61,524 nucleotides of DNA, from the NCBI GenBank assembly GCA_043820265.1, contig JBDREA010000097.1, positions 1-61,524 of the forward strand. Reading direction: 5' to 3'. Of this stretch, positions 3,455 through 36,792 are shown one piece after another. The notes beneath the pieces were generated by a model. That model had not been told where the DNA came from. It was given only the letters and a program-made list of their open reading frames with translations, and ran no database searches. Each line of letters starts with the position of its first letter. The first letter of the stretch is position 1. Made by a program: the position numbers and the translations under genes. The stretch comes from Candidatus Altiarchaeota archaeon. GTDB lineage: Archaea > Altiarchaeota > Altiarchaeia > IMC4 > JBDREA01.

Positions 3455-3808
3455 CTAATCTAAGCCACTTGTGATCTTTACTACGTAGTATGGTTGGCCG
3501 TCTACTTCAATGGGTGAAAACTTTGTGTTTAGGAGGACTACGTCCCCGTTTTTTTTCATGAGAGGTATCTTTTCGATTTCTCCCCCTCCGTGTAGGATGA
3601 TTTTTAGTAGCTCCTTCTTTTTGTCCCCAGCGAGTGTGCTTATGCTAAAAATCGGTTTTTCGCAAATCTCAGATGGGAGATAACCGAGCAAATCAGCTGT
3701 TTCATGGCTTATCCAGGCCACGCCCATTGCATACAAGTCGATTATCGCGTCAAAGTCCCCTACCCTCTCCTCTGCAATCCTGACAACTTTTTCGATGTTT
3801 TCGTTCAT
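3455..3808 (-). CDS. PAS-domain protein
   Basis: PAS-like core (AWISHETADLLGYLPSEICEKPIFSI...KKNGDVVLLNTKFSPIEVDGQPYYVVKITS). The ORF-track start at 3868 is a TTG, so I prefer the ATG at 3808 (MNENIEKV). Confidence 0.7.
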   Translation of the reverse strand: MNENIEKVVRIAEERVGDFDAIIDLYAMGVAWISHETADLLGYLPSEICEKPIFSISTLAGDKKKELLKIILHGGGEIEKIPLMKKNGDVVLLNTKFSPIEVDGQPYYVVKITSGLD

Positions 3809-3875
3809 AGTGGGTATATCTTGGAGTTTAGAAATAAATTTGAAGGAATGACTCAGTTGAGCTGCCAAATCTTTT

Positions 3876-4049
3876 TTAGGCGGGTTTGGGCGTTAGAGAA
3901 ATCCTCTCTCTGGGCTTGATCTTTACACATTGGTTCTCTTTTAGTTCCAGCCCATCTGCGACAAATTTATCGATGCATATGACGCCGTCTCTCCCTCTCC
4001 CCTGATACAAGAAGTAACCTCTAAACGACTTTCTTCCCCCATTAACCAT
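3876..4049 (-). CDS. small (57 aa) protein, possibly AbrB/SpoVT-like or double-psi beta-barrel-like
   Basis: Not in the ORF track (under 60 aa). ATG at 4049, TAA at 3876-3878: MVNGGRKSFRGYFLYQGRGRDGVICIDKFVADGLELKENQCVKIKPRERISLTPKPA. The G..I.ID......GL..(gd).V.I pattern resembles small beta-barrel DNA/substrate-binding domains. Lies directly upstream of the PAS gene on the same strand. Confidence 0.4.
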   Translation of the reverse strand: MVNGGRKSFRGYFLYQGRGRDGVICIDKFVADGLELKENQCVKIKPRERISLTPKPA

Positions 4050-4070
4050 GTCTTATCCAATCAAATATCA

Positions 4071-4105
4071 CAAAACAGATATATAAGCGTATGATGACGT
4101 CATCA
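4071..4105 (+). promoter_or_regulatory. TATA box with purine-rich BRE-like flank, followed by a perfect 14-bp palindrome
   Basis: CAAAACAG-ATATATAA (TATA at 4079-4086), then TGATGACGTCATCA (4092-4105), a perfect palindrome. A start about 25 nt downstream of the TATA would fall near G4111, where the GC-rich structured segment begins. Confidence 0.4.
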
Positions 4106-4110
4106 AATTA

Positions 4111-4495
4111 GTGGAATACCTCCTCATGCCGCGGAGAGCCGGAAACGACGAAGAGCTTCGCTCTTCGTGTTCACGAACAGTGAACTGTTCGTTGAACCCG
4201 GCAATTCATTGCCGGGATGCGAAAGAGACCGAAGGTCTCTTTGTGCGCATGAACGCGAATCGTTCTTCGCGGGAGGCCGCGGCCAATCCGGCTCTCCGGC
4301 ACACAAGCGACACCGATGTGTCGCTGTGCCCACAAACACCCTTGGGGTGTTTGTCGGGTGAAACCCCGCACTCGCTCAAAATCCCCTCGGGATTTCCCTA
4401 ATCAACCTTCGGTTGATTGGGCGCGAAATTCGCGAAGGGAATTTCAGCGTGGCGCACGGGAACACATAGCGTTCCCAGTGTTAGTGCGGGGTTAT
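4111..4495 (+). ncRNA. candidate large structured RNA of unknown class (strand assignment tentative)
   Basis: About 57% G+C by hand count versus about 33% in the 90 nt upstream. No credible ORF. Two perfect 11-bp long-range helices (4132-4142 with 4288-4298; 4362-4372 with 4483-4493) each enclose several perfect hairpins, with two further hairpins (4306-4325, 4332-4354) between them. See findings. Confidence 0.5.
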
Positions 4496-4929
4496 TCATC
4501 CAAAACGAGATGCGAGATATAGCCAAAAAACGCAAACCCGCAGTACACAGGGGACACTAAATACAAGGGCACAGAAAAAAACAAGGCGGCGGCCGGCGTA
4601 TGATAAAGCCTTCGATGCTTGGCGAACCAAAGCAGATACGGAAAGACAGCAAATATTAGAGCCACAAACAACACATAAATATCCGCCCTACCACCCAAAA
4701 ACATACCGATGGAAACGATGACGACAGCCAAGCATATGATGGAAACAGGCTTTCTGATCTTTGACGAAGGAGTGTCGATATCCGGCAAAATTGAATAAAC
4801 CGATCCAATCAATACTCCCACAAAAAAATCCCTAAAACTTATATCAATAAACTCCCCTCTTTCGTTTAAAACAAAAAACAAAAAGGCCAAAAACCAAAAA
4901 CCCACCAGATGAACTCGATAAGAAGGCAT
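4492..4929 (-). CDS. membrane-bound metal-dependent hydrolase-like protein (YdjM/DUF457-like)
   Basis: Polytopic membrane protein starting MPSYRVHLVG..., with PDIDTPSS and a C-terminal HLVLDE, typical of this family. The track N-terminal extension (MASNILEDI...) is encoded by the repeat element and was rejected. Confidence 0.65.
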   Translation of the reverse strand: MPSYRVHLVGFWFLAFLFFVLNERGEFIDISFRDFFVGVLIGSVYSILPDIDTPSSKIRKPVSIICLAVVIVSIGMFLGGRADIYVLFVALIFAVFPYLLWFAKHRRLYHTPAAALFFSVPLYLVSPVYCGFAFFGYISHLVLDE

Positions 4930-4932
4930 GAT

Positions 4933-5040
4933 AAATATAGTGGAGGACATATATATCCGGATAAATTCTATGTCTTCCAATATATTTGAGGCCATAACTG
5001 ATTACAGGACTGTCTAGGAGTTTATGGCCTCAACTATATT
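4933..5040 (-). repeat. double-hairpin promoter-proximal element, copy A
   Basis: Hairpin 1 arms are 4979-4997 and 5022-5040 (AATATATTTGAGGCCATAA / TTATGGCCTCAACTATATT). Hairpin 2 arms are 4942-4950 and 4970-4978 (GGAGGACAT / ATGTCTTCC). Homologous to the copies at 34086-34196 and 36682-36792. Confidence 0.65.
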
Positions 5041-5086: not shown

Positions 5087-5446
5087 ATGTACCATAAAGA
5101 CAAGACAAAAGCCCACAAAAAGAGGAAATACGCCCAAGGCAGGTTTTCAACCGAGACTACTGTTGGAAAAAACCAGATAAAAAAGGTCAAAGTCAAAGGT
5201 GGCGGGGAGAAGACAAAGCTAGCCTCAGCTGAAAAATGCAATGTCCTCCTCGACGGAAAGCACATTGTATGCGAAATCATCACAGTAACAGACAATCCAG
5301 CTTCAAGGGACTACACCCGCCGAAACATAATAACTAAAGGGGCGCACCTGAATGTGAAAACCCCGGCCGGAAAAGAGGTTGAAGTGGCAGTCACCTCAAG
5401 ACCAGGCCAGGTGGGGACAGTGAACGCCGTTGTAAAATCCGCTTGA
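5087..5446 (+). CDS. rps8e: 30S ribosomal protein S8e
   Basis: The basic N-terminus KAHKKRKYAQGR...KVKVKGGGEKTKL...NPASRDYTRRNIITKGA is typical of archaeal/eukaryotic S8e. Confidence 0.9.
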   Translation: MYHKDKTKAHKKRKYAQGRFSTETTVGKNQIKKVKVKGGGEKTKLASAEKCNVLLDGKHIVCEIITVTDNPASRDYTRRNIITKGAHLNVKTPAGKEVEVAVTSRPGQVGTVNAVVKSA

Positions 5447-5536: not shown

Positions 5537-7180
5537 ATGGAATTCAAAGAAAAAGCTGAAAAACTAATTGAAACCCATAAAAACGTAAAGGATAATCTTA
5601 GCCGAAAAGAACTTATCAAAGCTTGTGTCGAAAACAGGGAAGCAATTGTAGCTGCAAACGGCGCGCTTACAACCTGGACGCCTACTAATTCAACCGGTAG
5701 GAGCCCAAAGGATACATACCTGGTGAAGCGTCCGGAAAGCCAAGACACAATCGACTGGAACAGCCCCAACAACATCCCACTCTCACCAGAAACCTTTGAT
5801 ATGGTTGTCGAAGATGCGTTAGCTACTCTATCAAAAAAAGAAAAAATATATGTAACCGACCGCGTCCTCGGAGCCGACTCCTCCTACGCCCTCCCCGTAA
5901 AGACAATCACAGACAAAGCAATAATCTCACTTTTCACTGACAACATGTTCAGAGCCACACCAAAAGATATTGAAAAGAGCGTCTTTGCAGACAAACCTTT
6001 CATACTCATTGTAGTCCCAAATGACAAACTTGACCCGAAAAAATACACTGGTCTTCTACGAGTCCGGTCTACGGGAAATACTTCGCGAATGGCGATCGTG
6101 GCAGATATCGACAAACGTATCGGAGTAGTCTACGGTAGCTTTTATTGCGGATCCGTGAAAAAACTCATGTTCACCGTTATGAACTACGTGCTCCCGGGTG
6201 TTGGCATCCTACCTTTGCATTGCAGCGCAAATGAAGGAAAGGAAGGCGATACAGCACTTTTACTCGGACTTTCTGGCACTGGAAAAACCACTCTTTCCGC
6301 CGATCCTAATAGGGCATTGCTAGGGGACGACGAACACGGTTGGGATGAAAATGGAATAGCAAACTTTGAAAATGGATGCTACGCCAAACTCATCAACCTT
6401 CGAAAAGAGAAGGAACCAGAGATCTTTAATGCATGTTTCAAAAAAGAAGACTACTTAGATCACGGAGCAATAATCGAAAACTGTATGATGTATCCAGACG
6501 GCACATTCGACGTCGACGACGAAAGGCTTACGCCCAATAGCCGAGGTTCATATCCCCTTTCCTCTCTTAAAAACATTAAGACCCCCCCTGTGGGTGGCCA
6601 CCCAAAAACGATTCTCTTCCTCACAGCCGATGCAAATGGTGTGCTACCCCCGGTCTCAAAACTCACAGCCGAGCAGGCGATGCTCTGGTTTTTGATGGGA
6701 TACACTAGTAAGCTCGCAGGCACCGAACGCGGAGTCACCGACCCTGTGTCGACATTCAGCCGGTTCTTCGGCTCACCTTTCATGCCCAGAAACCCGGACG
6801 TCTACGCCAAGCTCCTCGGCGAAAAGATGAAAAAGCACGGGGCAACCGTCTATCTCGTAAACACTGGCTGGAGCGGCGGACCCTTCGGCGAAGGCGAGAG
6901 AATGGACATCATGCTCACCCGCGCAATCGTAGACGCATGCTTATCGGGAAAGCTTGAAGATGTCGAATACGAGGAAGACCCCCTCTTTCACATACTGGTT
7001 CCAAAATCGTGCCCAGGCGTAGCCTCAGATGTTCTGCATCCAAAAAACACCTGGAAGGACAAACAAGCTTATGACAAACGCGCCGAAAAACTCGCCAAAG
7101 ACTTCTGCGAGCATTTCCAAAAAGCCTACGGCAAAAAAAACATAGACGTCAACGTAGCCCAGATGTGCCCTGGAATCTAA
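5537..7180 (+). CDS. pckA: phosphoenolpyruvate carboxykinase (ATP)
   Basis: 547 aa. Kinase-1a P-loop LGLSGTGKTTLS, plus GDDEHGW and NTGWSGGPFG motifs characteristic of ATP-dependent PEPCK. Confidence 0.95.
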   Translation: MEFKEKAEKLIETHKNVKDNLSRKELIKACVENREAIVAANGALTTWTPTNSTGRSPKDTYLVKRPESQDTIDWNSPNNIPLSPETFDMVVEDALATLSKKEKIYVTDRVLGADSSYALPVKTITDKAIISLFTDNMFRATPKDIEKSVFADKPFILIVVPNDKLDPKKYTGLLRVRSTGNTSRMAIVADIDKRIGVVYGSFYCGSVKKLMFTVMNYVLPGVGILPLHCSANEGKEGDTALLLGLSGTGKTTLSADPNRALLGDDEHGWDENGIANFENGCYAKLINLRKEKEPEIFNACFKKEDYLDHGAIIENCMMYPDGTFDVDDERLTPNSRGSYPLSSLKNIKTPPVGGHPKTILFLTADANGVLPPVSKLTAEQAMLWFLMGYTSKLAGTERGVTDPVSTFSRFFGSPFMPRNPDVYAKLLGEKMKKHGATVYLVNTGWSGGPFGEGERMDIMLTRAIVDACLSGKLEDVEYEEDPLFHILVPKSCPGVASDVLHPKNTWKDKQAYDKRAEKLAKDFCEHFQKAYGKKNIDVNVAQMCPGI

Positions 7181-7191
7181 TAAAAAAGAAA

Positions 7192-7380
7192 ATGCCTGTA
7201 ATAGAAGTAAAACTCTGGGACGGCCGCACACCCGAACAAAAGGAAAAAGTCATCGCAGTCGTCACCGACGCCATCTGCGAATCGATTGGATGCCCCCGCG
7301 AACACGTCCACGTCATCATCCACGACGTGAAAAAAGAGAATTGGGGGATAGGCGGAAAACAAGCAAGCAAAATCCAATAA
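7192..7380 (+). CDS. 4-oxalocrotonate tautomerase family enzyme
   Basis: MPVIEVKLWDGRTPEQKEKVIAVVTDAICESIGCPREHVHVIIHDVKKENWGIGG. Catalytic Pro-1 after Met and about 62 aa, a classic 4-OT monomer. The start was moved from the track's 7165 to 7192. Confidence 0.85.
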   Translation: MPVIEVKLWDGRTPEQKEKVIAVVTDAICESIGCPREHVHVIIHDVKKENWGIGGKQASKIQ

Positions 7381-7433
7381 ACCACCACCTTAAACGCACT
7401 ATTTATCCTAGTTCTTCCCTGATAATTAATGCT

Positions 7434-10400
7434 ATGGCGAGGGGAAAGGTGGTATCTGGGGGCCAAAGACTAGTTCAAAAACCCCCAATATTAGATTTTA
7501 CTGAACTTGATTCACTTCTTAAGACCGCGGGACCTCAAGTCCAAGAAAATGTTTCTGGCTGGATAGATTTTCTAGAGGTAGGAGGCTACCAAGGTAGCAG
7601 ATTGTCCAGATCGATCGGGAGGGCTCTATCCTCCTACGATCAATTTTATATGGCCCACTTTCTCTCAAAAATGGGTTTTGGAGCTCCGAGAATTGCACCT
7701 ATTGTAGGATTACGGAAGGCGGATAGTGTTAGCCAATATTTAGAAAGGGAAATTCCTCTAAAGTATTCGGGTGCATCTATCGCAAGAGGTGAGAGTAATA
7801 GGGATGCTGCTCCCATACCATTCGTTGAGTCAGAGGAATTTGCTTATCTTCTAGGAGCATATTTAGGTCAGAAAAATAGACCAGGAAATCCTCGGTGCAT
7901 CTCCTTCGTTTCTGATTCGGCCAAAGTGTTGCATAGGATTTCCAGTACATGCAGGCATTTATTTGATGATAACCGAGAAGAACCAGTCGAACCTGTTACA
8001 TCTGATGATGGAAAACCGACTGGTTTTCATAGATTTTTCTACTATTCTAACGAATTGACACAATACCTCAGAAGCATAACTGATGGTAAAAAACGTCTTC
8101 CATGGGAGCATCTTCAGTCCAAAGCAGAAAAGATCGCGTTCCTGCAAGGATTCTTTGATGTTTCAGGTCACGTTTATACTGGAAAACATGCAAAAACAGA
8201 CAGACCACTCACCGTAGGACTCCGTAGTGAAAAACCTAATAGTCAAATACCGATGCTAGAGGATGTTCAAGCGTTATTATACGATTTAGACATATTTTCT
8301 CTTGTCGCCCCCTACCCAAACGATCGTTGTCGGTTGAAGATTGGTCTAAGAGAGGATGCTAAACGACTTGTTGATATAGGGGTTTTTACGGATGTAGAAA
8401 GGTTAGGGAAGTTACAGGTTGCGATTTCTGCGGGGGAAGAAGCTCCCTCAATTATAGGGATTCACTTGATGGATACCCTACGGAAAAAACGCGGTATTGC
8501 GCTCAAAGAGAAAATGGCATCTCGCCCCGATCACAGATCGATTGGATTTTTCCACAGAAACGTAGCTCCAATACCTGCACTAGCTCAGAGGGCAGCCAAG
8601 ATAGATTTAGATGAACTTAAGAGGAGATATATTGTTCTTGGAGGAGCAATGGGTATTGTTGAGCTTCGTTTGAATCCACAGTTGATTCTTCTTTCCCCTC
8701 AGGAATTCGAGCAGAGGTTTGGGGAAGAAGTGGAAATAAAGGCGAAAGCAGAGGAGAAAATAACTCCAATAATACAATCGGGTTCACCAGCAACTGAAGC
8801 CATGAAAGCTCTTGAGCTTTTATCTGAGTACCGTGCTGAAGGCAAAAGCCTTGAAAATGGCAGCGAAGACGAAAAAACACTTTTTACTGGCCTTCGAAGC
8901 CTTAATCCAGAAACACACCAGGGTGAATGGGGACGCCTTCTGAACTTCCTAGCTCATCAAAAACAGGGATTGGTTAAACGAACTTCTAAGGCATTCAAGA
9001 ATACTGGAATAGAAGAAGATGATCTAATCCAAATGGGAAATGTTGGATTAACCAGGGCATTATTGAAATACACTCCAGGGAGCGGAGCGTCATTTGACTC
9101 ATATGCGCATTGGTTCATCTATGGCGGCGTCATTGATGAATTAAGGATAACTGGGCGTTCCTCTGATCCAGTTAAGCTATCCAGGAAGCTGTTTAAGGAT
9201 ATGGGTAAGGTGGATACTGCAATCAGTCAACTCGAGCAGGAGTCGGGTGTGTATCCGACAACTGAAAAGATCGCACAGAGAGCAGGATTAAATCCTGATA
9301 AAGTGATGGAAATCAAACAACTTTGGACCACAGACCTTGAACTTGACAGGCTTGTAGACGATGGAGAACATGAGAGTACTCGCCAACTACCTGCCCTTGA
9401 TGGCCTAGCTGATTTCCGGACTCCGGATCGAGTAACAGAGACCAGGGAGAAAATGCAGATTCTTCAAGCACAGATAGCCGATCTTCCAGCCGAAGAAGGT
9501 TTTGTATTGAAGTTGAGAGAAGGTATCGGCACAAAAAATCACAGAAAGTACACAAACGATGAGATAGGTTCTGCATTAGGGGTTGATGATACTCGAGTCT
9601 CCCAGATCTATTCAAACGCTATTGATAAGCTAAAGAAAATCAATTATTCTTCTCGGGAAGCTCGCCAAGCCAAAGTTAGTAACTCTGATGTCGTCCTCTT
9701 CGAGGAGCTTGGCTGGACTCCCAGGAAACCTTTTTTCGACAGCCTTTGTCATGTACCTCATGATTGGCTGAGAGAAGCGATCACTGACATCCGCAAAAAT
9801 AATATTACGTTACCACCAAACATAGCTAAGGTTTTATTTATCCTGTTTCCTCTTGATCCAGTTCAGGAACAAACCAAGGACTTCCCACCTGAAATCATTT
9901 CTAATCTGCCTCGAAGTGAAAGAGTCATCTATAAACTACGCAATGGGATTGGAACTGAAAATGGATGGCGTTATTCGGCTGAAGGCATCGGCCTTATGTT
10001 CGGATTCTCCCCTGATCGTGTTAGAGACATGGAAAGGAAGGCTCTGACTACTCTTGAGGCACGAAAGGTAGATGCTAATACTGTAAGATCCGGAAGACGG
10101 TTGAAGCCCAATTATGCTCACATGGATAATGCAGACGTTTTTATCGCTGAACAGCTACATATCACATTTCAGGATCCAAGATTCACAGAGCTTGAGGAAC
10201 TCGGGGAGAAACTTCTTCGAGGAGAAGTTGCTAGACTTCATGATAAGAGGATCTCCTCAACTTCAGATATGATTGACCTACTCTTAAAGCATCCTCAAAT
10301 ACATCGAAACCGAGATTATAAGGCGAGAGTAGTGTCTCTAATCCCATTAAAGCAAGGACTTATATGGAAGCTTATGAATGGAATCGGGACTAGTGGGGGG

Positions 10401-10487
10401 AGATACACTCTAAGCAGATTAGTAAATGAGTTCAACCTTTCTCCAGGTTACGTAACACCTATGCTACAAAAAGCAGAAAAAACCTAG
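7434..10487 (+). CDS. LAGLIDADG-like domain / sigma-70-like (regions 2, 3, 4) fusion protein with two additional region-4-like HTH modules
   Basis: LAGLIDADG-like motifs FAYLLGAYLGQ (about 7839) and IAFLQGFFDVSGHV (about 8132). Sigma region 2 is DDLIQMGNVGLTRALLKYTPGSGASFDSYAHWFIYGGVIDELRI (about 8925-9155). Region 3 is about 9175-9325. Region 4 is FVLKLREGIG...YTNDEIGSALGVDDTRVSQIYSNAIDKLKK (about 9436-9640). Extra region-4 copies lie at about 9906-10062 and about 10341-10484. Start set at ATG 7434; the track start at 7290 overlaps the tautomerase gene. Confidence 0.8.
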   Translation: MARGKVVSGGQRLVQKPPILDFTELDSLLKTAGPQVQENVSGWIDFLEVGGYQGSRLSRSIGRALSSYDQFYMAHFLSKMGFGAPRIAPIVGLRKADSVSQYLEREIPLKYSGASIARGESNRDAAPIPFVESEEFAYLLGAYLGQKNRPGNPRCISFVSDSAKVLHRISSTCRHLFDDNREEPVEPVTSDDGKPTGFHRFFYYSNELTQYLRSITDGKKRLPWEHLQSKAEKIAFLQGFFDVSGHVYTGKHAKTDRPLTVGLRSEKPNSQIPMLEDVQALLYDLDIFSLVAPYPNDRCRLKIGLREDAKRLVDIGVFTDVERLGKLQVAISAGEEAPSIIGIHLMDTLRKKRGIALKEKMASRPDHRSIGFFHRNVAPIPALAQRAAKIDLDELKRRYIVLGGAMGIVELRLNPQLILLSPQEFEQRFGEEVEIKAKAEEKITPIIQSGSPATEAMKALELLSEYRAEGKSLENGSEDEKTLFTGLRSLNPETHQGEWGRLLNFLAHQKQGLVKRTSKAFKNTGIEEDDLIQMGNVGLTRALLKYTPGSGASFDSYAHWFIYGGVIDELRITGRSSDPVKLSRKLFKDMGKVDTAISQLEQESGVYPTTEKIAQRAGLNPDKVMEIKQLWTTDLELDRLVDDGEHESTRQLPALDGLADFRTPDRVTETREKMQILQAQIADLPAEEGFVLKLREGIGTKNHRKYTNDEIGSALGVDDTRVSQIYSNAIDKLKKINYSSREARQAKVSNSDVVLFEELGWTPRKPFFDSLCHVPHDWLREAITDIRKNNITLPPNIAKVLFILFPLDPVQEQTKDFPPEIISNLPRSERVIYKLRNGIGTENGWRYSAEGIGLMFGFSPDRVRDMERKALTTLEARKVDANTVRSGRRLKPNYAHMDNADVFIAEQLHITFQDPRFTELEELGEKLLRGEVARLHDKRISSTSDMIDLLLKHPQIHRNRDYKARVVSLIPLKQGLIWKLMNGIGTSGGRYTLSRLVNEFNLSPGYVTPMLQKAEKT

Positions 10488-34085: not shown

Positions 34086-34196
34086 GTATATAGTTGAGGT
34101 CATAATTACATGGGCATTCCAGGGTTAATTATGACCTCAAATATATTGGAGGACATTAAATATAGCCCAAATAATTATGTCCTCCACTATAAAAGA
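34086..34196 (+). repeat. double-hairpin promoter-proximal element, copy B
   Basis: Hairpin 1 arms are 34087-34104 and 34129-34146 (ATATAGTTGAGGTCATAA / TTATGACCTCAAATATAT). Hairpin 2 arms are 34148-34156 and 34177-34185 (GGAGGACAT / ATGTCCTCC). It is followed by ACTATAAAAG, then ATG at 34218. Confidence 0.65.
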
Positions 34197-36681: not shown

Positions 36682-36792
36682 TTATAGTCGAGGACTTAAT
36701 TACCTGGATTAATTTTTATGTCCTCGAATATATTTGAGGCCCTAACTTATCCTAATTCAGTCCATAACGTTGGGGCCTCAACTATAAATATA
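36682..36792 (-). repeat. double-hairpin promoter-proximal element, copy C
   Basis: Hairpin 2 arms are 36688-36695 and 36720-36727 (TCGAGGAC / GTCCTCGA). Hairpin 1 arms are 36727-36746 and 36769-36789. The orientation points toward the Mrr-like gene, whose ATG is at 36659. Confidence 0.6.

Follow-up and report, generated by a model that had tools for sequence, protein, structure and literature searches.

Contig JBDREA010000097.1 of the Candidatus Altiarchaeota assembly GCA_043820265.1, analysed here over its whole length of 61,524 nucleotides (nt) and referred to as the window, carries the gene ydjM, which specifies a membrane protein with the PF04307 domain. As it can be read now, ydjM occupies positions 4492 to 4929 on the minus strand. 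Its 3' end is adjoined by a G+C-rich, densely self-complementary segment (4111 to 4495), beyond which a perfect 14-nt palindrome, TGATGACGTCATCA (4092 to 4105), a TATA-like sequence, ATATATAA (4080 to 4087), and an open reading frame (ORF) of 57 amino acids without a domain match (3876 to 4049, minus strand) are found. On its other side, ydjM is separated by a divergent promoter region from the gene for ribosomal protein S8e (5087 to 5446). An earlier note on this DNA had placed the segment between two minus-strand genes and had proposed it as a large structured RNA of unknown class starting at G4111. By the list of ORFs this location is correct, but it is misleading, as ydjM, one of the two genes, has its 3' end split by the segment. 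The nature of this segment is the subject of the present analysis.

The 3' end of ydjM

Only three orthologues of YdjM were found among 5.8 billion proteins. In all three, a conserved HLVLD is followed by five or six further residues, the two closest ending in HLVLDEEVFR and the third in HLVLDKQMKLV, whereas the ORF in the window ends with HLVLDE at the edge of the segment. Its TAA stop codon (4494 to 4492) is provided by the last bases of the structured piece. The codons missing from the gene are present at the other side of the segment, where positions 4108 to 4125 read GAG GAG GTA TTC CAC TAA on the minus strand, specifying EEVFH followed by a stop. They are in the register expected from GAA GAA GTC TTT CGN and stop in the orthologues. 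In addition, the tetranucleotide TCAT (plus strand; ATGA on the gene strand) is found at both junctions, at 4124 to 4127 on the left and at 4496 to 4499 on the right. Deletion of 4128 to 4495 together with one TCAT yields GAT GAG GAG GTA TTC CAC TAA, and the resulting DEEVFH is of the same length as DEEVFR of the orthologues. The reconstructed empty site on the gene strand consists of ...GGATGA joined to GGAGGTATTCC. Since the ORF stops at the segment edge, the missing codons are intact beyond it, and TCAT is present at both junctions, the structured piece is, by comparison with the orthologous gene ends, a 368-bp insertion between ...HLVLDE and EVFH flanked by a 4-bp repeat. Its boundaries, 4128 and 4495, follow from the orthologue alignment and from the repeat. 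The consequence for the protein is small: with the new stop from the last bases of the element, YdjM is shorter by only four residues. As the insertion proper begins at 4128, an RNA starting at G4111 was not supported, the first 17 nt of this proposed RNA being displaced ydjM codons.

The two closest relatives with this region, loci L081 and L082 (S8e 63 to 65% identical), have a PAS gene ending 4 nt from ydjM, which leaves no room for the element at that site. The PAS gene is inverted in the window (region 3455 to 4049) relative to its orthologues (L081, 6258 to 6602; L082, 1306 to 1650) and now follows the 57-amino-acid ORF mentioned above. Moreover, feoAB is found in place of the hypothetical genes that the relatives have upstream. 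From the inversion of the PAS gene, the site of the element is also a breakpoint of synteny or rearrangement.

Displaced codons and a stop codon that are intact and in register also suggest a different explanation, namely that the intervening 372 nt are removed or bypassed at the RNA level. They could be spliced from the ydjM mRNA, by the archaeal splicing endonuclease acting on a relaxed bulge-helix-bulge motif or by a ribozyme, or the ribosome could skip them in a hop that leaves GAA-UAA and lands on GAG, and the product would end in ...LDEEVFH in each case. The length of 372 nt is divisible by three, the ends of the element coincide with the ends of folded domains, and the take-off codon GAA is located directly before a stop codon and a stable helix, with a matching GAG at the far end. 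Similar layouts are found in gene 60 of phage T4 and in the 'byps' of mitochondria. Introns removed by the splicing endonuclease do occur in archaeal mRNAs such as that of cbf5 (PMC2738675).

The junctions themselves provide little encouragement for splicing. Bulge-helix-bulge motifs were enumerated near both junctions as two 3-nt bulges on opposite strands with a 4-bp helix between them, relaxed motifs being outside this enumeration. None of the six candidates obtained gives ...LDEEVFH, and those in frame delete conserved residues or create a stop, so that no canonical helix-bulge-helix-bulge-helix motif yields the expected junction. Pairing of the flanks (-27.6 kcal/mol) was no better than with shuffled flanks (-25.6 +/- 2.9 kcal/mol), and a canonical archaeal bulge-helix-bulge intron was rejected on these grounds. 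A group I or group II intron was rejected as well. No match to either was obtained in Rfam at E <= 10, and on the minus strand the element begins with AUAACCCC and ends with GCGGC(AUGA), showing neither a GUGYG start nor a U at the 5' site combined with a terminal G. Finally, only four non-essential C-terminal residues would be gained by removal or bypass, and the distance of 372 nt far exceeds the tens of nucleotides covered by known ribosomal hops. Splicing or bypass of the ydjM mRNA appears improbable on balance.

Still more would be demanded by the view that a new type of mobile RNA-level intervening sequence is involved, a self-folding, all-hairpin piece of 372 nt that invades archaeal coding regions and is subsequently removed or bypassed in the mRNA, so that YdjM continues to end in ...LDEEVFH. 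Removal might then proceed by splicing at a non-canonical motif and ligation by RtcB, possibly with a stable circular RNA as product, or be replaced by the ribosomal hop from GAA-UAA to GAG. We regard this as very improbable. If RNA-level removal did take place, it would be important, as it would represent only the second kind of intron known from archaeal protein-coding genes.

Composition and folding of the segment

The G+C content of the segment, previously estimated at about 57% against about 33% upstream, was measured as 56.9% for 4111 to 4495 and 33.3% for the 90 nt upstream (4021 to 4110). The values for ydjM and the whole contig are 40.8% and 45.7%, respectively, giving the inserted 368 bp with their 57.3% G+C a foreign character. 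The dense self-complementarity was borne out by folding. On either strand, a minimum free energy (MFE) of -207.6 kcal/mol was calculated for the segment as RNA, corresponding to z-scores of -11.45 on the plus and -11.96 on the minus strand, and none of 100 shuffled sequences was equally stable. With DNA parameters the z-score was -13.1. In the MFE structure of the inserted piece, 78% of the bases are paired and 22% unpaired. When the contig was scanned for MFE with sliding windows of 150 nt, corrected for G+C content by regression, ranks one to five (z -5.1 to -3.55), and six of the first seven, were taken by windows from the segment, as opposed to a best value of -3.5 in the rest of the contig. 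The same picture emerged from a search for tight hairpins, defined as perfect stems of at least 8 bp with loops of 2 to 7 nt: 7 of the 16 distinct ones in the 61.5-kb window fall inside 4148 to 4418, while other Altiarchaeota loci (about 100 kb) contain zero to four each, none of them clustered.

The fold comprises two domains, and the edges of the folded domains coincide with the edges of the element. Domain 1 is closed by a perfect 12-bp helix (4132 to 4143 with 4287 to 4298), to which three more pairs can be added out to 4128 and 4300. It encloses six hairpins between 4148 and 4282. The first (4148 to 4168) has 9 bp and a 3-nt loop, the second (4170 to 4196) contains a stem of 9 bp with a 2-nt loop at 4173 to 4192, the third (4197 to 4216) again consists of 9 bp and a 2-nt loop, and the fourth (4217 to 4250) has 5 and 9 bp separated by a GTG bulge. 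They are followed by hairpins at 4251 to 4265 and 4267 to 4282. Two free-standing hairpins (4302 to 4358) come next, one at 4302 to 4328 with 8 and 3 bp (core 4306 to 4325, 8 bp and a 4-nt loop) and one at 4329 to 4358 with 13 bp and one bulge (core 4332 to 4354, 10 bp and a 3-nt loop). Domain 2 is closed by a perfect 11-bp helix (4362 to 4372 with 4483 to 4493), the 3' arm of which overlaps the present ydjM stop codon. In its interior (4373 to 4481), hairpins are located at 4379 to 4395 (7 bp, 3-nt loop), 4397 to 4421 (8 bp and a 3-nt loop at 4400 to 4418), 4425 to 4445 (7 bp, 7-nt loop), and 4454 to 4481 (6 bp and a 7-nt loop at 4458 to 4476), with alternative pairings that differ between the RNA fold and the DNA fold. 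Thus, both closing helices are perfect and the hairpins are as described before, except for 4251 to 4270, where not one hairpin but two mutually exclusive stems are possible, GAACG/CGTTC at 4251 to 4265 or CGCGAA/TTCGCG at 4254 to 4271. In total, the element contains about 13 different perfect hairpins within 368 bp, arranged in two nested domains.

Pairwise alignments of all hairpins revealed similarity at chance level only, each hairpin having its own sequence. One pair, h7 and d2b, with two seemingly 'compensatory' differences, was considered as a case of internal paralogy and dropped, as 6 of 8 identical positions in a half-stem are expected by chance among 78 pairs. The helices do share a polarity. 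In 10 of 11, the 5' arm is A/C-rich and nearly free of T (sign test, p = 0.012), with A:U exceeding U:A by 45 to 12 and C:G exceeding G:C by 53 to 35. This polarity is seen on both strands, because the stems are palindromes, and it would be in keeping with 3' arms made by fold-back copying of the 5' arms.

G-U pairs are as rare as had been anticipated, 4 among 149 MFE pairs on either strand as opposed to about 15 of 121 in shuffled sequences, and barring them costs the fold only 6 to 7 kcal/mol. Two stems are complementary down to a 2-nt loop, which is nothing an RNA hairpin needs. Among the 22% unpaired bases of the element, no single-stranded core was evident. The identical MFE on both strands, the scarcity of G-U pairs, and stems closing to 2-nt loops make the piece symmetrical in a DNA-like manner. 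Near-pure Watson-Crick stems, 2-nt loops, and few unpaired bases are typical of palindromic DNA, or of sequences that arose very recently, and not of a long-selected RNA.

A functional structured RNA would nevertheless be in line with the extreme fold (z about -11.5 and -12), and in some archaea with A+T-rich genomes, RNA genes stand out as G+C-rich islands. Such an RNA could be free-standing and transcribed on the plus strand from the TATA-like sequence ATATATAA, or it could act on the minus strand as a 3' untranslated region (UTR) module stabilising or terminating the ydjM transcript. For the first version, a TATA box had been noted about 25 nt before 4111. The sequence exists and has an A-rich flank resembling a B recognition element (BRE) on its 5' side on the plus strand, but it lies outside the insertion and is a near-palindrome of ambiguous orientation. 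On the minus strand it is about 33 nt away from the ATG at 4049 and could equally serve the 57-amino-acid ORF starting there. A plus-strand transcript initiated at this promoter would open with antisense ydjM codons, and no oligo-T run follows 4495 on the plus strand that could act as terminator. The 14-nt palindrome TGATGACGTCATCA, located between the displaced ydjM stop and the TATA-like sequence and likewise outside the insertion, is unique in the window and may be a regulator-binding site. For the second version, the ydjM stop codon marks the start of the element and, on the minus strand past the element and beyond the displaced stop, the T-runs TAATTTG, CTGTTTTG, and ATATTTG follow. The simplest expectation for this arrangement would be passive minus-strand transcription as 3' UTR of ydjM.

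Searches for known RNA families were negative. At the gathering score, no Rfam match was obtained in the whole window, and at E <= 10 the region 3900 to 4700 gave chance-level matches only (E > 3) on both strands, none of them to RNase P, signal recognition particle (SRP) RNA, group I or II introns, HEARO, GOLLD, ROOL, or self-cleaving ribozymes. Hence, the former conclusion that neither RNase P nor SRP RNA is present was correct. Genes for tRNA or tmRNA were not found on the contig. A C/D-box RNA, a K-turn, and a CRISPR-repeat mimic were dropped upon inspection by eye, as their defining motifs are missing. The search for homologues that had been recommended for a structured RNA found none in the collections covered, so that covariation could not support the helices. 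The relatives are devoid of the element at this site. Together with the rarity of G-U pairs, the identical fold on both strands, and 22% unpaired bases without an obvious conserved single-stranded core, these results make a functional RNA quite unlikely. Of the original proposal, the extreme fold and the lack of a known family remain, but a free-standing RNA gene is not supported, and the cluster of palindromes at the DNA level, put forward at that time as a caveat, is now the better-supported reading.

A protein-coding function was also rejected. None of the five ORFs of the segment matched Pfam, and no homologue was found for any frame, consistent with the previous impression that the translations are not protein-like. 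An ORF of 96 amino acids gave only two weak matches among 1.84 billion representative proteins, both to proteins of more than 2,300 amino acids that are not relatives of the element. All six frames, joined as one query so that homologous elements wrongly annotated as genes would be detected, yielded nothing among the 5.8 billion proteins, not even a self-match.

Origin of the inserted piece

From these analyses, we tentatively favour the reading that the segment is a palindromic, non-autonomous insertion element, putatively mobile and probably carried in the 3' UTR of ydjM, with a probability of roughly 0.45. What entered the last codons of ydjM in this Altiarchaeota lineage are 368 bp of G+C-rich, almost fully palindromic, non-coding DNA. 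According to the favoured reading, the perfect Watson-Crick hairpins of this DNA would act, or would have arisen, at the level of DNA or single-stranded DNA, possibly as fold-back structures used by, or made during, insertion and copying; RNA helices kept by selection would be a less likely origin. Because of its start at the stop codon of ydjM, the element is probably transcribed on the minus strand as a passive part of the ydjM 3' UTR, where a block of stable hairpins would probably slow 3'-to-5' decay as a side effect.

A number of observations weigh against this element being mobile, the most immediate being that a second copy is lacking. None was detected in the 61.5-kb contig, and no sequence of 13 nt or longer is common to the element and the rest of it. 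In about 100 kb of other Altiarchaeota loci (L081 to L084 and L099 to L102, found through S8e homologues), neither nhmmer at maximum sensitivity nor a scan for hairpin density revealed a related element. It was also not found in 80 loci, mostly bacterial, encoding phosphoenolpyruvate carboxykinase (PEPCK), and blastn searches of GenBank phages and PLSDB plasmids gave no match. Four pattern scans of IMG/VR resulted in none or only chance matches, and a 19-mer scan of JGI metagenomes in four chance matches, the best of which (L086) is located in a coding region of a high-G+C organism; such pattern scans need exact matches, and diverged copies would escape them. The lineage is poorly sampled, the next-closest S8e being 65% identical. 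Genes for a transposase, integrase, reverse transcriptase, or TnpB were not detected among the contig ORFs of at least 100 amino acids that were scanned, and cas genes were not found among them either. The architecture of the element raises further objections. The 368-bp unit is without terminal inverted repeats, which sets it apart from a classical miniature inverted-repeat transposable element (MITE), the hairpins near its ends are dissimilar to each other, unlike in PATEs, and each hairpin has its own sequence, unlike in the repeat arrays or GC-cluster families discussed below. Also, the 4-bp repeat could represent microhomology used in repair, and an intron would likewise leave the displaced codons and the stop codon intact.

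A single copy without any relative could also have been produced by a one-off, non-mobile event. A fragment captured or synthesised at a break in ydjM, by snap-back priming, template switching, or acquisition of foreign DNA, would be inserted, and fill-in of the stagger would generate the 4-bp repeat. Perfect stems that are each unique in sequence fit this explanation, the A/C-rich 5' arms in 10 of 11 helices are predicted by 'primary arm plus fold-back copy', and the site is a rearrangement breakpoint with its inverted PAS gene. On the other hand, nothing in the element appears to be templated from the contig, given the absence of a common 13-mer, and its G+C content is 12 points above that of the host. 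Furthermore, no repair process is known to us by which about 13 different hairpins, nested in two domains, would be assembled over 368 bp. A one-off insertion was considered unlikely, although it ranks first among the alternatives to a palindromic insertion element.

The least probable explanation is an assembly artefact, that is, a chimeric join or a foreign cluster of reads. The contig is metagenome-assembled, the composition of the segment differs from that of the contig, and no relatives were detected anywhere searched. An artefact would hardly create a clean 4-bp duplication flanking the insertion, however, or leave both parts of ydjM in the same orientation and register, and palindromes tend to break assemblies and not to arise from them.

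Apart from the insertion, the contig harbors ordinary chromosomal genes, among them feoAB, an iron-dependent repressor gene, and the genes for S8e, PEPCK, GatB (gatB), pyruvate:ferredoxin oxidoreductase, PyrBI (pyrBI), and ArgH (argH), as well as genes for an archaeal pilus similar to type IV secretion systems. An ORF of 1065 amino acids (7290 to 10487, plus strand) contains the bacterial-type Sigma-70 regions 2, 3, and 4 (residues about 557 to 783) on this otherwise archaeal contig. Such regions would not be expected in an archaeon and may have come by horizontal transfer or represent a DNA-binding module put to another use. In a comparison with loci L001 to L080, the ATP-dependent PEPCK (5537 to 7180, plus strand) shares 65 to 73% identity with its counterparts in Cloacimonadota, Acidobacteriota, and Anaerolineae and in scattered archaeal metagenome-assembled genomes (Heimdallarchaeota, Bathyarchaeia, and Aenigmatarchaeota), which suggests that the gene has been transferred horizontally. 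Two divergent promoter regions, between ydjM and the S8e gene (4986 to 5033) and between gatB and a methyltransferase gene (34094 to 34140), contain the motif TTATGRCCTCAA in inverted pairs with a spacing of 24 nt, and the motif is also found at 36734 to 36745. With five matches where 0.76 are expected, it probably serves these regions as a common operator or promoter element. In another altiarchaeal genome (GCA_043800255.1; L083, 7778 to 10354), the S8e gene is located about 1 kb from genes for Cdc6/Orc1 and KaiC-like ATPases, so that a replication origin may lie nearby in that genome. A perfect 9-bp hairpin is present just upstream of S8e there (9938 to 9958).

As a single orphan instance, the insertion is of modest wider significance. 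A practical warning can be drawn from it, since a G+C-rich island with an extreme folding z-score does not suffice to postulate a new RNA gene; in this case, alignment of the gene end with orthologues exposed the insertion.

Relation to known elements

Large structured RNAs such as RNase P RNA, SRP RNA, GOLLD, ROOL, HEARO, and OLE resemble the segment in a size of 300 to 400 nt, multi-helix junctions, and a G+C content above the genome average. They differ in that the element has no Rfam match at E <= 10, no conserved unpaired core, and few G-U pairs, and in that it is situated within the coding end of a gene and absent in relatives. The introns of cbf5 are much shorter than the element. The element shares with the bulge-helix-bulge intron of cbf5 (PMC2738675) a stable fold, a position within an archaeal ORF, and the intact codons downstream of it, but it lacks this motif at its junctions.

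A G+C-rich block of hairpins directly after a stop codon is also reminiscent of repetitive extragenic palindromic (REP) sequences and bacterial interspersed mosaic elements (BIMEs). These blocks are co-transcribed and protect the upstream mRNA from 3' exonucleases. REP repeats consist of one or two palindromes in alternating orientation that are present in hundreds of copies per genome, whereas the hairpins of the element are all different. By eye, no GTAG or CGTC tag typical of REP was seen in the element, and a REP/BIME array was rejected, as the alignments of the hairpins were only at chance level.

A closer likeness is found in the G+C-rich palindromic clusters of fungal mitochondria. Double-hairpin elements and the 'byp' elements, which we take to be related to these clusters, belong to the same context. 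The clusters stand out as G+C-rich palindromic hairpins from a more A+T-rich genome, behave like transposable elements with a sporadic distribution and putative short target duplications, merge and shuffle into composite new elements, as documented for yeast mitochondria, and are in some cases located in coding regions (PMC4478555). Apart from the difference between an organelle and an archaeal chromosome, single clusters comprise 30 to 60 nt and form repeated families, while the element shows no sequence similarity to them and no family was seen.

Among archaea, the highest density of MITEs, 146 per Mb, has been reported for Ca. Altiarchaeum hamiconexum (PMC11602168), and transposase-free palindromic elements without terminal repeats that insert into one another are known as PATEs, small mobile repeats (SMRs), and MITE conglomerates from Haloquadratum walsbyi (PMC3119063). 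Like these, the element is short, non-coding, rich in palindromes, and too small to encode a transposase, and its insertion adjoins a short oligonucleotide. With a classical MITE derived from a DDE transposon it shares a flanking repeat, TCAT, and removal of the element with one copy restores the ancestral frame; the repeat could be a duplication or, alternatively, consist of the target and the element's own end. However, the sequences with which the 368-bp unit begins and ends, GCCGCGGAGAG... and ...GCGGGGTTAT, do not form an inverted repeat, and a classical MITE was rejected for the lack of terminal inverted repeats. The inverted repeats at 4132 to 4143 and 4287 to 4298 and at 4362 to 4372 and 4483 to 4493 bound internal sub-units that have no flanking duplications of their own. 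The absence of terminal inverted repeats from the whole unit is as in PATEs. In PATEs, the palindromes close to the two ends are alike and the target is not duplicated, in contrast to the unrelated terminal hairpins and the 4-bp repeat observed here. PATEs derived from IS200/IS605 insert beside a target of 4 to 6 bp, with which the tetranucleotide at the junction of the element would be consistent. The internal units of about 130 to 170 bp, bounded by perfect inverted repeats, are comparable to SMRs, which are about 110 bp long and nest in other elements. Known families of all three kinds are multicopy, with one copy seen for the element; no member consisting of about 13 different perfect hairpins in a row has been described; and no IS200/IS605 gene (tnpA, tnpB) was detected among the scanned ORFs of the contig.

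By this comparison, the conglomerates of archaeal MITEs, PATEs, and SMRs and the palindromic GC clusters of mitochondria appear to be the closest known relatives in kind. If the 368 bp in ydjM are indeed a palindromic insertion element, they would represent a transposase-free insert of unusual complexity from an archaeal phylum that has been little studied, and hairpin-based mobile DNA would extend beyond the PATEs and SMRs of haloarchaea and the GC clusters of mitochondria.

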